Positions 1,008-9,174 of a stretch of DNA of 29,913 bases are shown here, one piece after another. Below the pieces are notes generated by a model. The model did no database searches, had not been told where the DNA came from, and saw nothing but the letters and a program-made list of their open reading frames with translations. This DNA comes from a virus (Duplodnaviria > Heunggongvirae > Uroviricota > Caudoviricetes). Location: IMG/VR virus record IMGVR_UViG_2724678986_000028. One strand, 5' to 3'. Each line of letters opens with the position of its first letter. The first letter of the stretch is position 1. The position numbers and the translations under genes are program-made.

Positions 1008-1355
1008 TTACTTATCACATAAATCAAATGCAGCCTTAGTGACATCCCCCAGACTCTTTTTTAACCCTGGGGCGGCATCATTATCTAGCCAAAATGGATT
1101 ATTGTTATCTAACGGTAACGCACCAAATGTTTTACCTTTTATTCGAGCTAAACCTGTAAGCGCATATAACTTATTATCGTCAAAATTCATCACATAAGGA
1201 TTACCATCAAGACACTGTAATTGAACCTCATCAGTATTAAATGGCCATACCCCATTGAAACTCTCACGTTCAATAGTTTTAAAAGGCATTGCGACGGCGG
1301 AAAAAGAAAACATAGATAAAAAAGTAACTAATAGTTGAACCTTTTTTACTTTCAT
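1008..1355 (-). CDS. Small secreted protein, unknown function (cargo)
   Basis: 115 aa with an N-terminal signal-peptide-like segment (MKVKKVQLLVTFLSMFSFSAVA) and two Cys in the mature part. AT-richer than the phage backbone. Only 5 nt from the int start. Family unassigned; a DUF2511/YebY-like fold is a guess only. Confidence 0.6.
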   Translation of the reverse strand: MKVKKVQLLVTFLSMFSFSAVAMPFKTIERESFNGVWPFNTDEVQLQCLDGNPYVMNFDDNKLYALTGLARIKGKTFGALPLDNNNPFWLDNDAAPGLKKSLGDVTKAAFDLCDK

Positions 1356-1384
1356 ATCATTACCTCAATTTAGCTCAAGTAAGA

Positions 1385-2035
1385 TTACAAATTAAAAAAC
1401 ACCCTAGAAATGGCACCGCCTACCAAAACCCCTACGCAGATAAAGAATATTATTTCTTTTGGATAAAGTCGGATTAATTCTGAAGCACGAAGTCGAACTT
1501 CTGGTAAGGCCGAACTCTCTGTGTGACTTGATGCCGATTGTTGCTCTAACCACGACAATGCAGACTGTAACTGAGAACGAGTAAGATCGTTTAAACGTCC
1601 TGTACCGAAATTGATATGGCAATACCGCAGAAGTTTTTGTCGAAGTCCACAGTCTTCACTGTTACGTAGTAATAAACTTACAAGAGTCTTACAGGCATCA
1701 TGATCTTTACATCGCTCAAGCATTGCATGCAGAAAACTCTCCGCTGTTTTATATTGATTTACTGTCATATCATCAATACCAGCTACACCAATCTCCGCAT
1801 GTACTTTTTGCCAAATAATAAACGCTTCAGTATTGCTAGCTTCTGCAATAGCAGCAACCAAGCTATTTAGCTCCTTACGCTGAGCCTTAAGCAAAGGGCG
1901 ATCGTCATCATCATTATTCGAAGGGATTGCGATATTGACGGTATGAGAACCATCATATCGCTCTATCTGAATATTCTTTTCGTGAAAATCACGCCCAGCA
2001 ACGCGATTGTTTGAACCGTTTGAGTTGACGGCCAT
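1385..2035 (-). CDS. Tail-anchored membrane protein, unknown function (cargo)
   Basis: 216 aa with a single C-terminal hydrophobic helix (EIIFFICVGVLVGGAISRVFF). GGGAGG RBS 4 nt before the ATG; start lies 15 nt after the repressor stop. The N-terminus carries a motif also found at the repressor C-terminus. Confidence 0.6.
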   Translation of the reverse strand: MAVNSNGSNNRVAGRDFHEKNIQIERYDGSHTVNIAIPSNNDDDDRPLLKAQRKELNSLVAAIAEASNTEAFIIWQKVHAEIGVAGIDDMTVNQYKTAESFLHAMLERCKDHDACKTLVSLLLRNSEDCGLRQKLLRYCHINFGTGRLNDLTRSQLQSALSWLEQQSASSHTESSALPEVRLRASELIRLYPKEIIFFICVGVLVGGAISRVFFNL

Positions 2036-2050
2036 GTCACCTCCCTACTA

Positions 2051-2455
2051 TCACCTACCCTTAGTTTCGTTATAGTCACGACCAGCGATACGGTTATTAC
2101 CACCAGAAATATTTAACTCACGTCCTGATGGCTGAGTTTCCTTTTCACTGATCGCACCTTTTAAAGCCCCGATCACCGCGTTTTTCACATCTAACGAAGC
2201 TGCTCGAAAGCGAGTAATCAACTCCTGCTCATCATCGTTATAAGTTTCAGGTGAGTGAATTCCCAACACAACATACTGAACATCAAGGCCAAAACGAGAC
2301 AGCGCTGCCAAATACGCAGCATCAGGAAAGCTATCTCCTTTCTCATATCTAAGCTGAGTTAGCTTTTTGACTCCACCAATGTCGCTCATGGCAACTTGAC
2401 TAAGTCCCAATCTTTCCCTTTCCTCACGCAACCGCTGACCAATATCATTTTTCAT
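2051..2455 (-). CDS. Immunity repressor, XRE-type HTH (P2 C / 186 CI position)
   Basis: 134 aa; N-terminal HTH (LGLSQVAMSDIGGVKKLTQLRYEKG). Divergent from the early operon and first gene of the leftward repressor-int operon. Confidence 0.75.
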   Translation of the reverse strand: MKNDIGQRLREERERLGLSQVAMSDIGGVKKLTQLRYEKGDSFPDAAYLAALSRFGLDVQYVVLGIHSPETYNDDEQELITRFRAASLDVKNAVIGALKGAISEKETQPSGRELNISGGNNRIAGRDYNETKGR

Positions 2456-2530
2456 ACAAAAACCTTGACAGGTATCTTTTTTGATACCAAAATGATTTCA
2501 CGAGCTATTAGATGATCACAATATACCACT
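2456..2530. promoter_or_regulatory. Divergent lysis-lysogeny switch region with candidate early promoter and operator dyad
   Basis: TTGACA at 2465-2470; a perfect inverted repeat GGTATC(2471-2476)/GATACC(2483-2488) fills the spacer; weak -10-like CAAAAT at 2488-2493. Sits between the divergent repressor and early-operon starts. Confidence 0.4.
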
Positions 2531-2737
2531 ATGAAACAAGTTCTTCACGATACCAGATCACGCATTCCGCGTAACACCGCCACAGGTCCAAGACTGGCAC
2601 TTCGGCTGTCCCTCGAGGAGCGAGCCGTCATTGATGAAATGGCAGCTAAAGAACAACGCTCATCCTCTAACATGGCGCGCATGATCTTCCTTCGCGGCCT
2701 AGAGCTAACCCAGAAAGAACAAAACAAATCTTCCTGA
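2531..2737 (+). CDS. Small ribbon-helix-helix-like regulator, first early gene
   Basis: 68 aa; beta-strand-plus-helix pattern RLALRLSLEERAVIDEMAAKEQ typical of RHH/CopG-type DNA binders. No clear SD, so the start is uncertain. Confidence 0.5.
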   Translation: MKQVLHDTRSRIPRNTATGPRLALRLSLEERAVIDEMAAKEQRSSSNMARMIFLRGLELTQKEQNKSS

Positions 2738-2753
2738 TCAGGAGGCTAGTGGG

Positions 2754-2957
2754 ATGTCAGGTATAACCATCAATATCAATGTGAATGCCCCCTATGTATC
2801 CCTGCAGAAATATGCAGAGATAACAGGTATCCCTCTTAATACATGCAAAAAGATGTTGGCTGACGGTCGAATTATTATCCGCCCCAAACGCGCCAAAATG
2901 GAAAAGCCTGAAGTAAACCTTGTGGCGATGTTAAAAGACGCTTTGGCTAACAGCTAA
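2754..2957 (+). CDS. Cox/Apl-like small HTH protein (excisionase/early repressor candidate)
   Basis: 67 aa; GGAGG RBS 9 nt upstream. The segment PYVSLQKYAEITGIPLNTCKKMLADGRIII resembles the Cox/Xis-type DNA-binding region as I recall it. Confidence 0.5.
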   Translation: MSGITININVNAPYVSLQKYAEITGIPLNTCKKMLADGRIIIRPKRAKMEKPEVNLVAMLKDALANS

Positions 2958-2978
2958 AACAATGAACAGAGCATCATC

Positions 2979-3329
2979 ATGAAAAAAAACACTAATAATC
3001 CATACTCCAAATTTCGTAATGGCGTAGAACGCCATGTACACCACGTCGCTACCAGTGCATCACGTAGTAACAGCCGCTATAACCTGAACGAGACGCACGC
3101 AACACCAGATGGGCACGCTGTAAAACAAATCGGCGAACACACCTGGCTGATTGAGAAAGCTGGAATCGTGGTTCACAGATGCCCACACAATCCGTTTACC
3201 GGAAACCGCATTTTTGCATTAAGCAGCGGCGATAATCAGTTCGGGCAGGATTTCACATTGTACGAAGCACTACGCACAGTCGATCGTCTGCTTCGCGGGC
3301 AAAGTTTTATTAAACAGGCTGCTTTATAA
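2979..3329 (+). CDS. Early-operon hypothetical protein
   Basis: 116-aa ORF co-directional in the early operon; no recognisable motif. Confidence 0.5.
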   Translation: MKKNTNNPYSKFRNGVERHVHHVATSASRSNSRYNLNETHATPDGHAVKQIGEHTWLIEKAGIVVHRCPHNPFTGNRIFALSSGDNQFGQDFTLYEALRTVDRLLRGQSFIKQAAL

Positions 3330-3339
3330 CAGGTGCTTT

Positions 3340-3618
3340 ATGACTAAAGACCATGCACAAGGTGTATTTATCCGCTTTATTGATTTTCGCGGTGAACTGT
3401 TATTACGCGCATCAGCTATTGACGGAGTAGTTCCATCTGAAAAAAACGCAGCTACCTACGTTTATCTGAACGGTACACGCCTGACTGTAGAGCTTCCGTA
3501 CCAGATCATTCGCGAAATAATTAGCGAAGCCGAAAAATCTCGTCAGGTTAATGGCGATGAACCCTATATCGAGATTATCTGCATGGATTCAGAAGCTGAA
3601 ATTCAGAAAGCAGATTAA
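3340..3618 (+). CDS. Early-operon hypothetical protein
   Basis: 92-aa ORF, tightly packed in the early operon; no recognisable motif. Confidence 0.5.
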   Translation: MTKDHAQGVFIRFIDFRGELLLRASAIDGVVPSEKNAATYVYLNGTRLTVELPYQIIREIISEAEKSRQVNGDEPYIEIICMDSEAEIQKAD

Positions 3619-3629
3619 AGGGTGTTGCG

Positions 3630-3872
3630 ATGGATAAAGAATATAAAACTCTCATCAACAAAGCACTTGAGCGTTTTTATTTTCGTTTAAGCGCATCCGG
3701 CGCTCATTCAGAACGTGCAGCCCGTGACTCATTGACCAGGGCTATCCGGAGTCTGTATGACGTAGCTTTTTACGCTGACGATCTGGATGCACTTAATGAA
3801 CTTTCTGAGCTTATCTGCGCCGCAGAATGCGGGGAGCATATTGAGCCGTACAAACTGGGAAATATCGCATGA
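3630..3872 (+). CDS. Early-operon hypothetical protein
   Basis: 80-aa ORF, tightly packed in the early operon. Confidence 0.5.
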   Translation: MDKEYKTLINKALERFYFRLSASGAHSERAARDSLTRAIRSLYDVAFYADDLDALNELSELICAAECGEHIEPYKLGNIA

Positions 3873-3982
3873 GTATATTTATATCCTGGATTGTTCTTAT
3901 TATTTCGGTGGTTTGTGCAATTGGTATTATGCGAATTATTAATTCAGTAAAAAAGATTGAACGCTTTTTCACTGGCGAATAA
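3869..3982 (+). CDS. Candidate 37-aa single-pass membrane peptide
   Basis: Not in the ORF track (too short). ATG at 3869 overlaps the preceding stop as ATGA. Translation MSIFISWIVLIISVVCAIGIMRIINSVKKIERFFTGE has a hydrophobic core and a basic C-terminus. Confidence 0.35.
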   Translation: MSIFISWIVLIISVVCAIGIMRIINSVKKIERFFTGE

Positions 3983-4068
3983 CCGCATAAATAAAACCCC
4001 AGCTTAAATAAAAAAATGTGAACACAATCTGCATTCGCAGAGGTATTCACACACACCAAGGAGGCGTA

Positions 4069-4272
4069 ATGGCAATTAAGCATTTTCCTGTCGTTCGTTT
4101 CACCTCCAGAGGACGTGAATACGAAGTCGACGAACGTCTGATTACCACAATCGACAAACACCGCTCAGAAAAGGATGCACACCACATCTATCTCACTGAC
4201 GGCACTTACTTTTGCGCCACTAATGTGGCGCGGGTGAATCTTATCCGACAGGTACAGGATCCACGCAAATGA
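4069..4272 (+). CDS. Early-operon hypothetical protein
   Basis: AAGGAGG at 4058-4064, 4 nt before ATG 4069. The track ORF from 4018 is likely an N-terminal over-extension. 67 aa. Confidence 0.5.
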   Translation: MAIKHFPVVRFTSRGREYEVDERLITTIDKHRSEKDAHHIYLTDGTYFCATNVARVNLIRQVQDPRK

Positions 4273-4487
4273 GTAGGAGAAGAATCACTCGCAGACATCA
4301 CCGAACACACCTGAGTTCCTCAGCAACGCTAAAGGCACTTATTCAAAGCGAGATCGGTGATTTCTTCGCGGGAGTTGGCTCACCAGGCGAACCAGAAACA
4401 CCAGAAGCGATGCAGCGTGAGCTCATGATACGCATAGATAACACTTTTGATTTCTTCTACAGCATGCACGGAATTAAACAGAAATGA
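4269..4487 (+). CDS. Early-operon hypothetical protein (Arg-rich N-terminus)
   Basis: 72-aa ORF; ATGA overlap with the upstream gene. Confidence 0.4.
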   Translation: MSRRRITRRHHRTHLSSSATLKALIQSEIGDFFAGVGSPGEPETPEAMQRELMIRIDNTFDFFYSMHGIKQK

Positions 4488-4595
4488 ACCTCAAGCCAGC
4501 AATAACTACTCGTAGAACGTCAATTCCTGTAACCGACCGCTTCTGAGTTTTTTGGCAGGAAGCCTTCGCACATCTGTAGTAAAGAGAATTGCAGC

Positions 4596-4985
4596 ATGAT
4601 TGACGCTCATGACTTCACAAGATGGGTGCGCACACAGGACACCCGTCTGGCTCCCATTCTTCGGGGATTATTTGATCTCTACATTCGTGGTCGTGACAAC
4701 AGAGCACGCACCACAAAACCGGAGAATGTGGATACCCTTTATTTCACAGTAGACGACTGCTACCGCGTGGACTTCACACCACACGGACTGGCGTTGCACT
4801 GCCTGACACCGCACGGCGAATCACTGCTGGCGTATTACGACTCCCCGGCCTCCGTATTTGCGGCAATGCTGGCGCATCGCACTGCTGGCGGGTGTGTCTC
4901 GCTGAGTGAATACACCGCTGAATTTAACCGCCTTTCCACCATCTTCTTGCAGGAGTGGCAGCGCGTGACGGGATACCAGCCATGA
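4596..4985 (+). CDS. Hypothetical protein immediately upstream of the replication gene
   Basis: 129-aa ORF; its stop overlaps the gpA start as ATGA. Confidence 0.5.
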   Translation: MIDAHDFTRWVRTQDTRLAPILRGLFDLYIRGRDNRARTTKPENVDTLYFTVDDCYRVDFTPHGLALHCLTPHGESLLAYYDSPASVFAAMLAHRTAGGCVSLSEYTAEFNRLSTIFLQEWQRVTGYQP

Positions 4986-7822
4986 GTGCGTTTGCATGGA
5001 GCTGGAATGAACCACGGCCAGCCATTGATCCGGCCAGATTTACGGAGCGCAGGCAGGAAACTGAAACCGACCTGCAACGCGCCATCCGTTACTACCTTGA
5101 GGCAAACAAAAGGGCACAGGAAGAACAGGAAGCGAAGGAGGAAGCCTTTTTCGCACAATCCACCGTGGGTAAAAAACTCATGGCATCCCTTGAGGAAGCC
5201 GGACAGCGTGAAAAGCTGGCACAAAGCATCATCAGCAAGCGTCAGGCAACAGAACAAGACCCGGTGGCCCGTGCTTTTGCCACACTGAAGGTGCTTCCCG
5301 TTTATCTGCGTGAACCTCTGAGCCGCCACCTCTCTTTTCTGCGCAAGAAGCAGGAAGCCGATCGTCAGAAAGGCAAAAAGAGCTGGCAGGCTGAACGCTA
5401 CGCGCGCGGAACCCTGCGCAAAATATTCGAACGTCTGGACCGCACCGACAGCCGCTGGCTGACACCGGGCTATCGCTCCCTTGCCGGACGCGAACGCCTG
5501 GACGATTTGCTTTACCTGCCGCAGCTCAACAAACACCAGATACAGACGCTGGCCACCATGACGGCGGCGATGTTCAGTGGCACTTTTGAAAAACTCTGCG
5601 ATGGCTTTGGCGCGACCGATGGCGAGCTGACCATGGATGTAACGCTGAAGGCGTATCAGATGCTGGCCCGCATGGCGTTACACCTGCACGCTATGCCTCC
5701 ACATTATGACGCTCTGACAACAGACAAAGACCGGAGGAATGAACCGGACACGGAGCTGCTGCCGGGCGCAATCCTTCGCCTGACCTGTGCGGAATGGTGG
5801 AAACGCAAACTGTGGCTGTTACGTTGCGAGTGGAGAGAAGAACAACTCCGCGCCGCCTGTCTGGTTTCCAGAAAAACATCACCCTATCTGAGCCAGGACG
5901 CGTTAAGCGAGTTTCGCGCACAGCGCGAGAAAACACGCGATTTCCTGAAAAGTTTCATGCTGGAAAACGAAGACGGGTTCACGATTGATCTCGAGACAGT
6001 GTATTACGCGGGAGTAAGTAACCCGATTCACCGTAAGGCAGAAATGATGGCCACCATGAAGGGGCTGGAACTTCTGGCCGAAGCCCGTGGCGACAGAGCG
6101 GTGTTTCTGACTGTCACCTGCCCGTCAAAATACCACGCCACAACAGAGAACGGTCATCCGAATCCCAAATGGAACGGGGCCACCATGCGCGACTCCAGCG
6201 ATTACCTGGTTAACACGTTTTTTGCGGCGGTCCGCAAGAAACTGAACCGCGACGGCCTGCGCTGGTATGGCATCCGCACGGTGGAGCCTCACCATGACGG
6301 CACCGTGCACTGGCATATGATGGTCTTTGCTCATCCGGAAGAAATCGACACCATTGTGTCCCACACCCGCGATATTGCCATTCAGGAAGACCGCCACGAG
6401 CTGGGCAATGATATTACTCCGCGCTTTAAGGTGGAGTATGTCGACGGCTCAAAAGGCACGCCAACCAGCTACATCGCCACCTACATCGGAAAGAACCTGG
6501 ACAGCCGCGCCGTGGATGGCATCGACCCGAAAACGGGCAAGCCACGCGTTGACCACGAAACCGGAAAATCAATGGCCGAGAGCGTGGAACGCGCCATCGG
6601 CTGGGCACGCCTTCACCGGGTCCGCCAGTTCCAGTTCTTTGGCATCCCCTCCCGTCAGGTATGGCGTGAACTCCGCCGCCTTGCCAGCCAGATGGCACGC
6701 AACCCGGAAGGCCCACAACGGCTGAAGGATGATGCAATGGATGCGGTACTCGCTGCCGCTGATGCCGGGTGTTTTGCCACCTACATTGAGAAACAGGGCG
6801 GCGTACTTGTTCCACGCAAAGACTACCTGATTCGCACCGCCTACGACCTCGCAGATGAGCTGAACGATTACGGCGAACAGAGCGTACAGATTTACGGGAT
6901 CTGGTCACCACTCATCGGGGAATCCTCCCGTGTGTGCACGCACCCGGATAACTGGAAGCTGGTAAGACGTAAACCGGAAGCGGAAGACAGCACCCGCGAA
7001 AATGGTTTTGACCTTCAGGGCGGCCCTGCCGCCCCTTGGACTCGTGGCAATAACTGTCCCCGTGTACAGGAAACGGACAACAACGGGACAGAACAGCCGG
7101 AAGAAAGGCCAGCACCGTGGCCGCAGCTTCCTGACGGCGTTGACGTGAATGAATGGATGCGCTCACTGAAACGGCACGAACGCCGGGCGCTGATGCGTTC
7201 GCTGCGTGACAAACAGGCAAAAAACAGCAGTGATGAAATGCAGAACTGGACACAGAGCCGCAAACAGCCACGGCCTTTGCCTGATAACCACGAGTTACTC
7301 GCTAAAGAATGGCGGGAGTCTGCTGAATCTCTCGGCCTGCATATCGGTGAACAGCAGATGCAGCACCTGTTACGGGGCGGCAGTCTGTACGTTGACGGCA
7401 GCATCATTGCACCGCAGGGATTTGAAATTGTACGCAAACCAGATACCCGCCCGGACAGCCGAATCACGCAACTCTGGCAGCGCCTGAGCCGTAATCACGG
7501 CGTAAGCAGCACGGAGATCCGCCATAACCCGGTCGCCAGCTATCTGGAACAGCTGGGGGCATCAGACCCCGAAGCCGCCGCACACCTGGCATCCACACTT
7601 CAGCAGGACCAGAACACCATGAAAACCCCCGTTACCGTGCTTTCTGACATGCTGCGCGCCATCCGTGACGCAGTGCACGCACAGAGAATCAGTGAAACCA
7701 CTGAACGCGCCCACCGCAAAGCAGACCTGCTGCGGGGTAGCCTGACCAGTGGAAACAAAAAACAGACAGAAACGGGACTCACAAATCCCGTAAATGAGCA
7801 AAAAACGTGCCGCGATATATGA
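4982..7822 (+). CDS. A: Rolling-circle replication initiator, P2 gpA family (HUH endonuclease)
   Basis: About 946 aa. HUH motif VHWHMMVF and paired-tyrosine motif SYIATYIGKN are visible. First ATG at 4982; the GTG at 4955 in the track has no usable SD. Confidence 0.85.
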   Translation: MSAFAWSWNEPRPAIDPARFTERRQETETDLQRAIRYYLEANKRAQEEQEAKEEAFFAQSTVGKKLMASLEEAGQREKLAQSIISKRQATEQDPVARAFATLKVLPVYLREPLSRHLSFLRKKQEADRQKGKKSWQAERYARGTLRKIFERLDRTDSRWLTPGYRSLAGRERLDDLLYLPQLNKHQIQTLATMTAAMFSGTFEKLCDGFGATDGELTMDVTLKAYQMLARMALHLHAMPPHYDALTTDKDRRNEPDTELLPGAILRLTCAEWWKRKLWLLRCEWREEQLRAACLVSRKTSPYLSQDALSEFRAQREKTRDFLKSFMLENEDGFTIDLETVYYAGVSNPIHRKAEMMATMKGLELLAEARGDRAVFLTVTCPSKYHATTENGHPNPKWNGATMRDSSDYLVNTFFAAVRKKLNRDGLRWYGIRTVEPHHDGTVHWHMMVFAHPEEIDTIVSHTRDIAIQEDRHELGNDITPRFKVEYVDGSKGTPTSYIATYIGKNLDSRAVDGIDPKTGKPRVDHETGKSMAESVERAIGWARLHRVRQFQFFGIPSRQVWRELRRLASQMARNPEGPQRLKDDAMDAVLAAADAGCFATYIEKQGGVLVPRKDYLIRTAYDLADELNDYGEQSVQIYGIWSPLIGESSRVCTHPDNWKLVRRKPEAEDSTRENGFDLQGGPAAPWTRGNNCPRVQETDNNGTEQPEERPAPWPQLPDGVDVNEWMRSLKRHERRALMRSLRDKQAKNSSDEMQNWTQSRKQPRPLPDNHELLAKEWRESAESLGLHIGEQQMQHLLRGGSLYVDGSIIAPQGFEIVRKPDTRPDSRITQLWQRLSRNHGVSSTEIRHNPVASYLEQLGASDPEAAAHLASTLQQDQNTMKTPVTVLSDMLRAIRDAVHAQRISETTERAHRKADLLRGSLTSGNKKQTETGLTNPVNEQKTCRDI

Positions 7823-7898: not shown

Positions 7899-8858
7899 AT
7901 GAAAATTTGTATCGACGACGGCTCCACCAACATCAAGCTGGCGTGGACTGAGAACGGCGAACGCCGCAACGCCATCAGCCCGAACAGCTTCAAGTCGGAA
8001 TGGTCTGCGCCGTTCGGTGGCACGCAGCCCGCGAACTACATGCTTGATGGCGTGCGCTATGGTTTTGATCCGGTCAGCGATCGCTTTGTCCAGACGACCG
8101 ACACGCAATACCAGTACAGCGATGTGAATATAATTGCCATTCATCACGCGCTGGTCAAATCAGGCATCACACCACAGGAAGTGGATGTGGTTGTCACCCT
8201 GCCACTGAGCGAGTATTTCGATACAAACGCACAGCCGGACATGGCCAACATCAACCGCAAAAAAGCGAACGTCATGCGCCCGGTGGAGTACCAGAACGGC
8301 GAAGCATTCACTATCCGTAACGTACGGGTTATGCCTGAATCCATTCCGGCTGGCTTTAAGGCACTGGCTGACATGAGTCCGTTTGAATCCCTGCTGATTG
8401 TGGATTTGGGCGGAACCACTCTGGATGTGGCAAAGGTTCAGGGGCAACTGGCAGGTATCAGCCAGGTGTTTTGCGATCCACACGTGGGCGTTTCTCTGAT
8501 GGCCGATGCCGTACTGTCGGTGATGGCCACTAACGGTATGCGCACCAGTCACCACATCGCCAATACCATTATCGAACATCGCCATGATGAAGCCTGGCTG
8601 CGCCAGCACATCCACAATGACGCGCATTACGCCAGCCTGATGGCGGTTATTCGTGAAAAGGAAGAAACACTGAAACAACGCGTGATCCGCGCGCTGGCGG
8701 GTTTTTCGGGTTACGGGCGGGTGATGGTTGTCGGTGGAGGGGCGGAGATTGTGGCACCCGCTATCCGCGAAGCCTGCGGAGTTAATGCGACTTTCATCGC
8801 GGACGGGGTGCCACAGTTTGCTCTGGTTAATGGGCTGTACGCAATGGACAAGGAGTAA
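7899..8858 (+). CDS. parM: ParM/StbA-like actin-fold partition ATPase
   Basis: 319 aa. Actin-fold motifs IDDGSTNIKL (phosphate 1), IVDLGGTTLDV (phosphate 2) and VVGGGAE (adenosine). Collinear over its full length with plasmid R1 ParM as recalled. RBS AAGGA upstream. Confidence 0.85.
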   Translation: MKICIDDGSTNIKLAWTENGERRNAISPNSFKSEWSAPFGGTQPANYMLDGVRYGFDPVSDRFVQTTDTQYQYSDVNIIAIHHALVKSGITPQEVDVVVTLPLSEYFDTNAQPDMANINRKKANVMRPVEYQNGEAFTIRNVRVMPESIPAGFKALADMSPFESLLIVDLGGTTLDVAKVQGQLAGISQVFCDPHVGVSLMADAVLSVMATNGMRTSHHIANTIIEHRHDEAWLRQHIHNDAHYASLMAVIREKEETLKQRVIRALAGFSGYGRVMVVGGGAEIVAPAIREACGVNATFIADGVPQFALVNGLYAMDKE

Positions 8859-8862
8859 ACCA

Positions 8863-9174
8863 ATGACGACTCCAACCAGACGGATAAGTTTCTATCTGAA
8901 GCCCACCGCCGTCAAGAACGAAGGAGAAGCATGCGCCTGGCTGGACAGCCTTACACCAGAAGCCCGCAAAAGCGGCCAACGCGTGGCTTTTCTGGCCGGG
9001 CTGGCACTTCTGAAAATGAATCCGGCAGAGGCTTATCGACTGGCTGCATGGGCTGGTGATGAAGCGTTATCAGTGACACAAACCAGGACAGAACGCCCCG
9101 CATCACAGCCAGTATCAACCGCACAGATAACCAGTCAGATGGCCGGAAATATCCGGGCGTTATTTCCTGAATAA
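8863..9174 (+). CDS. parR: ParR/StbB-like centromere-binding adaptor
   Basis: 103 aa from ATG 8863, with AAGGAG 7 nt upstream (the track ORF from 8728 is over-extended). N-terminal RRISFYLKP...RVAFLAGLALL resembles the ParR RHH region; C-terminal NIRALFPE resembles the R1 ParR tail as recalled. Confidence 0.6.
   Translation: MTTPTRRISFYLKPTAVKNEGEACAWLDSLTPEARKSGQRVAFLAGLALLKMNPAEAYRLAAWAGDEALSVTQTRTERPASQPVSTAQITSQMAGNIRALFPE

Follow-up and report, generated by a model that had tools for sequence, protein, structure and literature searches.

We examined a mini open reading frame (mini-ORF) at positions 3869–3982 on the plus strand of a 29,913-nucleotide (nt) stretch of Caudoviricetes DNA (IMG/VR record IMGVR_UViG_2724678986_000028; hereafter called the window). 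The mini-ORF starts with an ATG at 3869–3871, ends with a TAA stop codon at 3980–3982 and encodes a peptide of 37 amino acids (aa), MSIFISWIVLIISVVCAIGIMRIINSVKKIERFFTGE. It lies directly behind an 80-aa gene of the DUF4754 family (3630..3872, plus strand; Pfam PF15946, E = 7.5e-54), the product of which is a predicted three-helix bundle, and, as claimed in the original prediction, its start codon overlaps the stop codon of this preceding gene in the form of an ATGA (3869..3872). Taken together, the ORF itself, public annotation and a set of conservation tests identify a mini-gene for a single-helix membrane peptide: the mini-ORF is real and already annotated, and its product is an uncharacterized small phage-encoded membrane protein.

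Two parts can be distinguished in the peptide. Codons 3–24 (IFISWIVLIISVVCAIGIMRII; 3875..3940, plus strand) form the predicted transmembrane helix, which was delineated by hydropathy, an AlphaFold2 helix and invariant alignment columns, and codons 25–37 (NSVKKIERFFTGE; 3941..3979, plus strand) form a charged tail with a conserved motif, predicted to lie on the cytoplasmic side. The best 19-residue segment, residues 3–21, has a mean Kyte–Doolittle hydropathy of 2.84 and a summed value on the Hessa scale of −3.4 kcal/mol. With this, the mini-ORF ranks first in hydrophobicity among the 105 ATG-started ORFs of 30–60 aa in the window, the runner-up reaching 2.27. AlphaFold2, supplied with an 18-sequence alignment, returned one unbroken helix spanning residues 2–34 at a mean predicted local distance difference test (pLDDT) score of 88. 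Hydropathy and structure prediction thus agree with the single transmembrane helix that had been proposed for this peptide. The basic C-terminal tail proposed alongside it stands in a weaker form: residues 25–37 comprise three K/R and two E, giving a net charge of +1, or +2 if R22 is included, so that the tail is basic, but only mildly. More clearly basic tails are found in 41-aa relatives, which terminate in KRRK, ERRK, KRHK or KHHK. According to the positive-inside rule, a basic tail is placed in the cytoplasm and the N terminus in the periplasm, and we infer this topology for the peptide. Overall, we consider it very likely that the product is a single-pass inner-membrane protein.

The original prediction had further described the ORF as unannotated and missed by gene callers, a claim that did not hold up. 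While the window carries no annotation, RefSeq lists WP_000021647.1 (hypothetical protein) at exactly the position of the mini-ORF in an identical genome, phage P88 carries a homolog with 92% identity as gp07, a 'membrane protein' (YP_009113050.1), the O157:H7 homolog is WP_000021655.1 in RefSeq, and 12 out of 12 sampled Escherichia coli genome matches bear the annotation 'hypothetical protein'. The mini-ORF is omitted from some records, such as CP061233 and NC_049344. P88 gp07 and the two RefSeq proteins are direct homologs of the peptide or identical to it, with the same length, the same ATGA overlap and the same place in the early operon; there is no structural difference, and these entries are annotations only.

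To judge by several searches, the family does not extend beyond Escherichia and its close relatives. Among 5426 complete E. coli genomes, 1344 contain the 114-nt sequence, at 72–100% identity. A word-indexed search of 5.8 billion proteins yielded 57 relatives (78–100% identity), all named Escherichia. A hidden Markov model search of 1.84 billion cluster representatives gave 17 matches, all belonging to the same peptide family; apart from some fragments, they fall into four or five sub-lineages with lengths of 37 or 41 aa, and the clusters that were looked up were all from E. coli. A tblastn search added a Citrobacter phage and one Salmonella plasmid. Separately, we noticed the module on a 226-kb contig labeled with a Gram-positive genus (NZ_JBQPOM010000071.1, 'Vagococcus sp. 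WN89Y'), with 98% identity of the DUF4754 protein and 91% identity of the DNA, which is most likely due to contamination or a mislabeled assembly.

Selection on the reading frame

Because the G+C content of the mini-ORF is low (0.30, compared with 0.52 across the window), its coding status needed testing. We gathered 144 loci from viral contigs and from phage, plasmid and genome records by anchoring on the neighboring DUF4754 gene, not on the mini-ORF itself. The ATGA was retained in 142 of these loci, the remaining two being a GTGA and a degraded record (phage 503458), and 135 loci carried an intact frame of 37 or 41 codons. Collapsed to distinct haplotypes, the frame of the mini-ORF was open in 66 out of 68, and each other frame was interrupted by stop codons in 50–68 of them. 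The original prediction had named a check of conservation in relatives, with a broken frame as the outcome that would speak against the ORF; the frame is kept in nearly all of them.

Substitution patterns gave the same picture. For codons 1–32, the ratio of nonsynonymous to synonymous substitution rates (dN/dS, or omega; Nei–Gojobori method) was 0.18, versus 1.50 and 0.93 in the other forward frames. In comparisons of the deepest lineages, with a dS of ~0.9 and a dN of 0.15–0.22, omega was 0.17–0.23. When alignment columns were exchanged at random between positions sharing a consensus base, the synonymous fraction was 0.20 ± 0.04, compared with 0.395 observed (p ~2e-4). The shuffled alignments contained 5.2 stop-containing variants on average, whereas a single one was observed, which stems from a frameshift in an A-run and not from a substitution. 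Several positions draw on many synonymous codons: G19 is encoded by all four glycine codons, A17 by four alanine codons and S13 by four serine codons. These patterns indicate that the mini-ORF is a protein-coding gene under purifying selection, and we regard it as highly probable that it is a real, translated gene.

All conservation tests contradict the notion of a chance ORF in an A+T-rich spacer, in which T-rich DNA would read as hydrophobic codons and the annotation would be a gene-caller artifact. Such an origin would be in keeping with the low G+C content, the weak Shine–Dalgarno (SD) element in the window, the very short length and the lack of a family match; it is difficult to square with peptides that remain 54–68% identical beside partner proteins that are only 26–41% identical. 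We therefore assign it a next to negligible probability. A 116-aa antisense ORF (3811..4161, minus strand), which is open in the window, was also considered and rejected, as it is broken in 50 out of 68 haplotypes; the omega of 0.33 calculated for it mirrors selection on the sense frame, as is usual for antisense ORFs.

The residues that are invariant across lineages are S6, W7, L10, A17, G19, I23, I24, K28, I30, E31 and F34, and position 22 is either R or K. Hydrophobic character is retained in all lineages. The 41-aa lineages keep the tail motif K-x-I-E-x-[FL]-F-T-G-[DE], conservation thus reaching past the membrane segment, and the window peptide conforms to the whole-peptide family pattern M-[SN]-[IV]-[FL]-x-S-W ... 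A-[IV]-G ... [RK]-I-I ... K-x-I-E-x-x-F. Along the peptide, conservation peaks at 105 degrees per residue, near the period of an alpha-helix or a heptad repeat (p ~0.013 if the test is limited to 95–105 degrees), which is suggestive, but only suggestive, of one conserved helix face. In five divergent loci, identity to the window was 79, 39, 26, 38 and 44% for the 80-aa protein and 76, 68, 57, 54 and 81%, respectively, for the peptide, which is hence 54–81% identical where its partner is only 26–44% identical. As far as these alignments indicate, both the membrane segment (S6, W7, L10, A17, G19) and the tail (K28, I30, E31, F34) are conserved, and the peptide is better conserved than the partner gene.

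Recurrent length variants arise at two homopolymer runs in the mini-ORF, A6 (3949–3954) and T5 (3965–3969). One extra A (A7) truncates the peptide to 30 aa in 3 out of 144 loci, and loss of one T (T4) leads to a 45-aa peptide with the new tail ...FSLVNNSTNKTPD, present in 5 out of 144 loci and in many NCBI protein entries. Both forms may be either loss-of-function alleles or tolerated variants. The degraded record of phage 503458 (NC_049341.1, 125–470), a predicted prophage, carries several small indels in the DUF4754 gene and the mini-ORF within ~350 nt, reflecting either joint decay of the gene pair or a low-quality assembly.

A coupled gene pair in the early operon

The ATGA overlap, kept as described above and present as a 4-nt overlap also in the divergent loci L148, L149 and L152, suggests translational coupling to the DUF4754 gene. 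Inside the 3' end of the latter lies a weak SD-like purine run (TGGGAAAT; 3856..3863, plus strand), identified by its duplex energy with the 16S ribosomal RNA tail. All lineages have an element of this kind 7–13 nt 5' of the ATG despite differences in the DUF4754 residues encoded there, which also speaks for a coding ORF; its duplex energy is −4.2 kcal/mol for the window and ranges from −5.5 to −8.3 kcal/mol among the other lineages. The same region contains G GGA AAT (3857–3863), which, read in the frame of DUF4754, is a canonical slippery heptamer for −1 frameshifting; it sits 6 nt 5' of the ATG, and the mini-ORF occupies the −1 frame. A DUF4754–peptide fusion made by programmed −1 frameshifting was nevertheless rejected, since GGGAAAT occurs in only 23 out of 144 loci, most of which have GGGGAAT; the heptamer is probably a chance synonymous variant. 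Likewise, 'DUF4754' proteins of 103–128 aa were rejected as natural fusions to the peptide, as they result from frameshifts into other reading frames, most of them in assemblies of raw reads.

An 80-aa gene precedes the peptide gene in every locus examined, be it phage, plasmid, viral contig or genome, and this pairing holds even where the 80-aa protein is too diverged for a Pfam DUF4754 call. The gene preceding DUF4754 is replaced in one locus (L117) and missing in another (L148), and the pair of DUF4754 and peptide is still together in both. DUF4754 has a dN/dS of 0.058. Its AlphaFold2 model is a confident three-helix bundle (pLDDT 88.6), for which a Foldseek search of the PDB returned only non-specific helical matches (E > 1) and no functional hint. 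That the peptide acts together with DUF4754 appears to us about as probable as the opposite.

The 1.3 kb around the mini-ORF match the E. coli E2865 chromosome (NZ_AP018808.1) with 100% identity and Xuanwuvirus phages (Peduoviridae, P2 family) such as P88 with 86–92% identity; by homology, the window is a P88-like (Xuanwuvirus, P2-family) prophage. In the annotated record, the minus strand carries an integrase gene, two small cargo genes and the gene of a helix-turn-helix repressor. The plus-strand operon comprises, in this order, a Cox-like gene, DUF4761, a PHROG-3800 protein, DUF4754, the 114-nt 'hypothetical protein', several small genes, the replication endonuclease gene A and ParM, and is followed 3' by P2-type head, lysis and tail genes, with holin, endolysin, LysB and LysC genes located in the late region at ~16.8–18.1 kb of the window.

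We scanned positions 2300–5200 on both strands for promoters with a consensus-based method, which weak promoters may escape. The sole sigma-70-like site found, TTGACA-17-CAAAAT (2465..2493, plus strand), is the likely early promoter. The repressor gene (2051..2455, minus strand) diverges from it on one side and the first early ORF follows on the other, as at Pe of P2 and pR of 186, and the mini-ORF lies ~1.4 kb 3' of it. The layout of the operon matches those of P2 (Pe-cox-orf78-B-terminator-...-A) and 186 (pR-apl-cII-fil-dhr-tR1-...-A). Placement of the mini-ORF in an early operon, another element of the original prediction, is thereby supported by homology of architecture, namely the promoter position and the run of genes to replication gene A.

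The prophage repressor should shut off this promoter, and the mini-gene should therefore be silent in lysogens. This bears on a possible role of the peptide as a superinfection-exclusion or immunity factor, that is, an inner-membrane peptide that would block the entry of incoming phage DNA similar to Imm of T4. Exclusion proteins such as Imm are expressed early by T4 during lytic growth, and a predicted small inner-membrane protein of a temperate phage that is very common among E. coli prophages would suit such a function. Its location in the early lytic operon, 3' of a promoter that is presumably repressed in the prophage, argues against it, as do the lack of a PADLOC match and the presence of likelier lysogenic-conversion genes beside the repressor on the other strand (1008..2035). 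We hence consider an exclusion function highly doubtful.

The two cargo genes in question lie between repressor and integrase (1008–2035, minus strand) in the direction of lysogenic transcription. One product, annotated as 'membrane protein', is 216 aa long and has a hydrophobic segment at its C terminus; the other is a DUF2511 protein with a signal-peptide-like N terminus. PADLOC gave no match for either protein. Both are likelier to represent lysogen-expressed functions than the mini-ORF.

A 5-bp G+C-rich hairpin, TCTGC-ATTC-GCAGA (4028..4041), supported by covariation, follows 46 nt after the stop codon of the mini-ORF. Across 46 distinct sequences, its stem is 98.7% paired, with compensatory CG to UA changes at two out of five pairs and a variable loop; the outer arms (4017–4022 and 4046–4051) are poorly supported, at 78.5% paired. 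The hairpin is present even in the lineages that diverge most. Homology among relatives stops 10–15 nt past it, where at least three alternative downstream genes start, so that the hairpin marks the right-hand end of the conserved module. Its position is that of the early-operon terminators of 186 and P2. On the plus strand no U-run follows the hairpin; on the minus strand it is followed by a conserved U-rich tract and was flagged as terminator-like. It may act on either strand.

With a conserved, covarying hairpin after the ORF, at the place where 186 and P2 have terminators, and a module boundary just past it, one might suppose that translation itself is what matters. The mini-ORF would then be a coupling or trailer ORF, the translation of which keeps the initial segment of the early transcript covered at its 3' end or modulates the hairpin and expression of the next gene. 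Selection at the amino-acid level, evident from an omega of ~0.2, conservative replacements and invariant residues encoded by multiple codons, contradicts this idea, and so does the hydrophobic character retained in all lineages. Moreover, the stop codon lies 46 nt before the hairpin, beyond the reach of a terminating ribosome. We give this explanation very little weight.

Further observations concern neighboring genes. The first ORF after the early promoter (2531–2737, plus strand) encodes a 68-aa ribbon-helix-helix protein with a full-length match to PHROG 3431 'Arc-like repressor' (E = 1e-28). RefSeq annotates the opposite strand there, with a 45-aa hypothetical protein (2545–2682, minus strand) that is probably a wrong-strand call; omega was 0.16 for both ORFs, calculated from only eight haplotypes with little diversity. 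RefSeq also flags 2979–3329 and 4269–4487 (both plus strand) as pseudogenes without an N terminus. The former, the DUF4761 ORF, has an ATG and covers Pfam positions 1–105 out of 105, and the flag looks over-cautious. The latter, a 72-aa ORF, matches only positions 34–97 of PHROG 4144, and the interval between it and the preceding gene is without the MarR/Ead genes of P88 and the O157 relatives, which fits a deletion. Finally, ParM and a partition/stability gene directly follow replication gene A (7899–9174, plus strand), and a relative has been deposited as a 34.5-kb E. coli 'plasmid' (NZ_CP148288.1), which hints that some P88-like phages may persist as phage-plasmids.

Proposed role of the peptide

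Based on these findings, we propose that the mini-gene is presumably transcribed with the early lytic operon of the P88-like prophage and would be translated mainly by coupling to DUF4754, through the ATGA overlap and the weak internal SD-like element. The peptide would be made in a fixed ratio with DUF4754 early in lytic growth. Its two-residue N terminus would be periplasmic, and the helix (residues ~3–24) would cross the membrane and continue into the short, charged cytoplasmic tail. Most likely, the peptide would work by side-on contact of its helix with a partner and not as a bulk membrane disruptor or passive anchor; this partner could be DUF4754, a host inner-membrane protein or both. 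DUF4754 and the peptide would make up an accessory cassette of two parts, directed at a process associated with the host envelope at an early stage of lytic growth and occupying the place held by fil and dhr in phage 186. We regard this reading as a whole, a coupled, early-lytic single-pass peptide within an accessory host-interference cassette with DUF4754, as the best explanation, with about an even chance of being correct. A host-interference role specifically of the division- or envelope-inhibitor type is possible but rather unlikely.

The original prediction had suggested inhibition of cell division, membrane targeting or exclusion, all of them reasonable candidates; what would point to any such function is position. 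In 186 and P2, small accessory genes are placed like the mini-gene, after the genes of the lysis–lysogeny switch, before the earliest internal terminator (or hairpin) of the early operon and upstream of replication gene A. In 186 these are fil, the product of which inhibits cell division, and dhr, which acts against host replication, with tR1 behind them; in P2 they are orf78 and B, again with a terminator behind. None of them is related to the peptide in sequence, and Fil (75 aa), Dhr (66 aa) and Orf78 (56 aa) exceed it in length and are not built as N-terminal transmembrane peptides. Literature searches turned up no paper on 186 fil and dhr, on DUF4754, on the RefSeq accession, on the sequence of the peptide or on CP-933T together with P2-like elements; judged by title and abstract, the papers that mention Xuanwuvirus treat unrelated subjects.

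Other small membrane proteins offer mechanistic parallels. Caulobacter SidA (29 aa) and gp56 of Bacillus phage SPO1 are tiny bitopic inhibitors that bind late divisome membrane proteins, which is the kind of mechanism that a conserved helix face would allow; their hosts differ, and no homology is expected. AcrZ, MgrB, MgtS and CydX are E. coli regulators of 30–50 aa with one transmembrane helix that act by helix–helix contact with a larger membrane protein. Unlike these proteins, which are chromosomal and have their own regulation, the peptide is phage-borne, coupled to a soluble partner and without a family model.

The build of the peptide also resembles that of toxins. Fst, Ldr and Hok-type toxins are small, with a hydrophobic helix and a charged tail, and the size of the peptide, its N-terminal hydrophobic helix and charged tail (shared with Hok/Gef, Ldr, Fst and TisB) and the G+C content of 0.30 are similar. 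The peptide might thus damage membranes as type I toxins, type V toxins or holins do, by oligomerizing in the inner membrane and depolarizing it, and DUF4754 would then serve to neutralize or modulate it. A small-protein gene always precedes the peptide gene, and this pairing and the ATGA overlap resemble the antidote-first order of toxin–antitoxin systems, GhoS/GhoT (type V) likewise consisting of an upstream small-protein gene followed by the membrane-peptide gene, and the invariant small residues A17 and G19 could mediate self-association. However, with matches scanned up to an E value of 1, no model from Pfam, which holds models for Hok and other type I toxins, from NCBIfam or from PADLOC was accepted for the peptide: the best Pfam match, YiaAB (E = 0.1), fell below the threshold, the best NCBIfam match (E = 0.067) below the cut-off, and the PADLOC defense models did not match the peptide and gave only a spurious match to DUF4754 (E = 0.018). 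The promoter scan of 2300–5200, within its limits for weak promoters, revealed neither a promoter-like site of the gene's own nor one on the opposite strand that could drive an antisense RNA as in type I systems. The gene is embedded in a repressed lytic operon and is not a stand-alone addiction module. Holins, in turn, belong to a late, endolysin-adjacent lysis cassette, in which this phage has a holin of its own, whereas the mini-gene is part of the early operon. The conserved cytoplasmic tail motif, moreover, suggests specific recognition and not only pore formation. Altogether, we judge the toxin explanation decidedly unlikely.

Several observations weigh against the proposed coupled host-interference cassette. 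No homolog of known function was found for the peptide in profile searches of Pfam, PHROGs, NCBIfam, PADLOC and the PDB, and an hhalign comparison with Fil of 186 gave a probability of 0.3% over 5 aligned columns. What suggests a contact between peptide and DUF4754 is their linkage, and in one locus (L146) the DUF4754 gene is recombinant (44% identity) while the peptide is an ordinary one (81% identity), so that the two do not strictly co-vary. The SD-like element of the window is weak, as 18% of all window positions reach −4.2 kcal/mol or lower and 7% reach −6 kcal/mol or lower. The periodicity of conservation is not significant if all periods are allowed (p ~0.15). The 30-aa truncated and 45-aa frameshifted-tail variants make up ~6% of loci, which implies that some of the tail can be dispensed with, or else that the gene is not essential. 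Lastly, the peptide is absent from the supplements of a ribosome profiling (Ribo-seq) paper on small genes of strain Sakai (PMC5597208) and of 'The Cryptic Bacterial Microproteome' (PMC11188072), a missing signal that is expected because the early operon is repressed or the gene already annotated.

The cassette can also be cast in a more specific form, as a two-component early-lytic module of P2-family prophages. Here, the peptide would be a membrane-embedded helix that confers specificity by binding an inner-membrane machine of the host, such as a late divisome protein or a membrane protease (FtsH, for instance), and the soluble three-helix partner would be delivered to this machine or control it. 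We consider this version unlikely.

Small membrane proteins have received too little study, and the early genes of phages are a promising place to look for inhibitors that act specifically on host machinery. With purifying selection, above-neighbor conservation and a constant organization as a two-gene cassette, the peptide is one of the cleaner candidates, and it is present in ~25% of complete E. coli genomes, including O157:H7 and enteropathogenic E. coli (EPEC) strains. Even if it turned out to be a dispensable accessory gene, the correction that the ORF is real and already annotated would remain well supported. If its target were the divisome, a membrane protease or a transporter, the peptide would provide a useful probe as well as a function for two 'domain of unknown function' entries. 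The two-component module, if true, would represent a new mechanism of host takeover by phages, carried by about a quarter of E. coli genomes.

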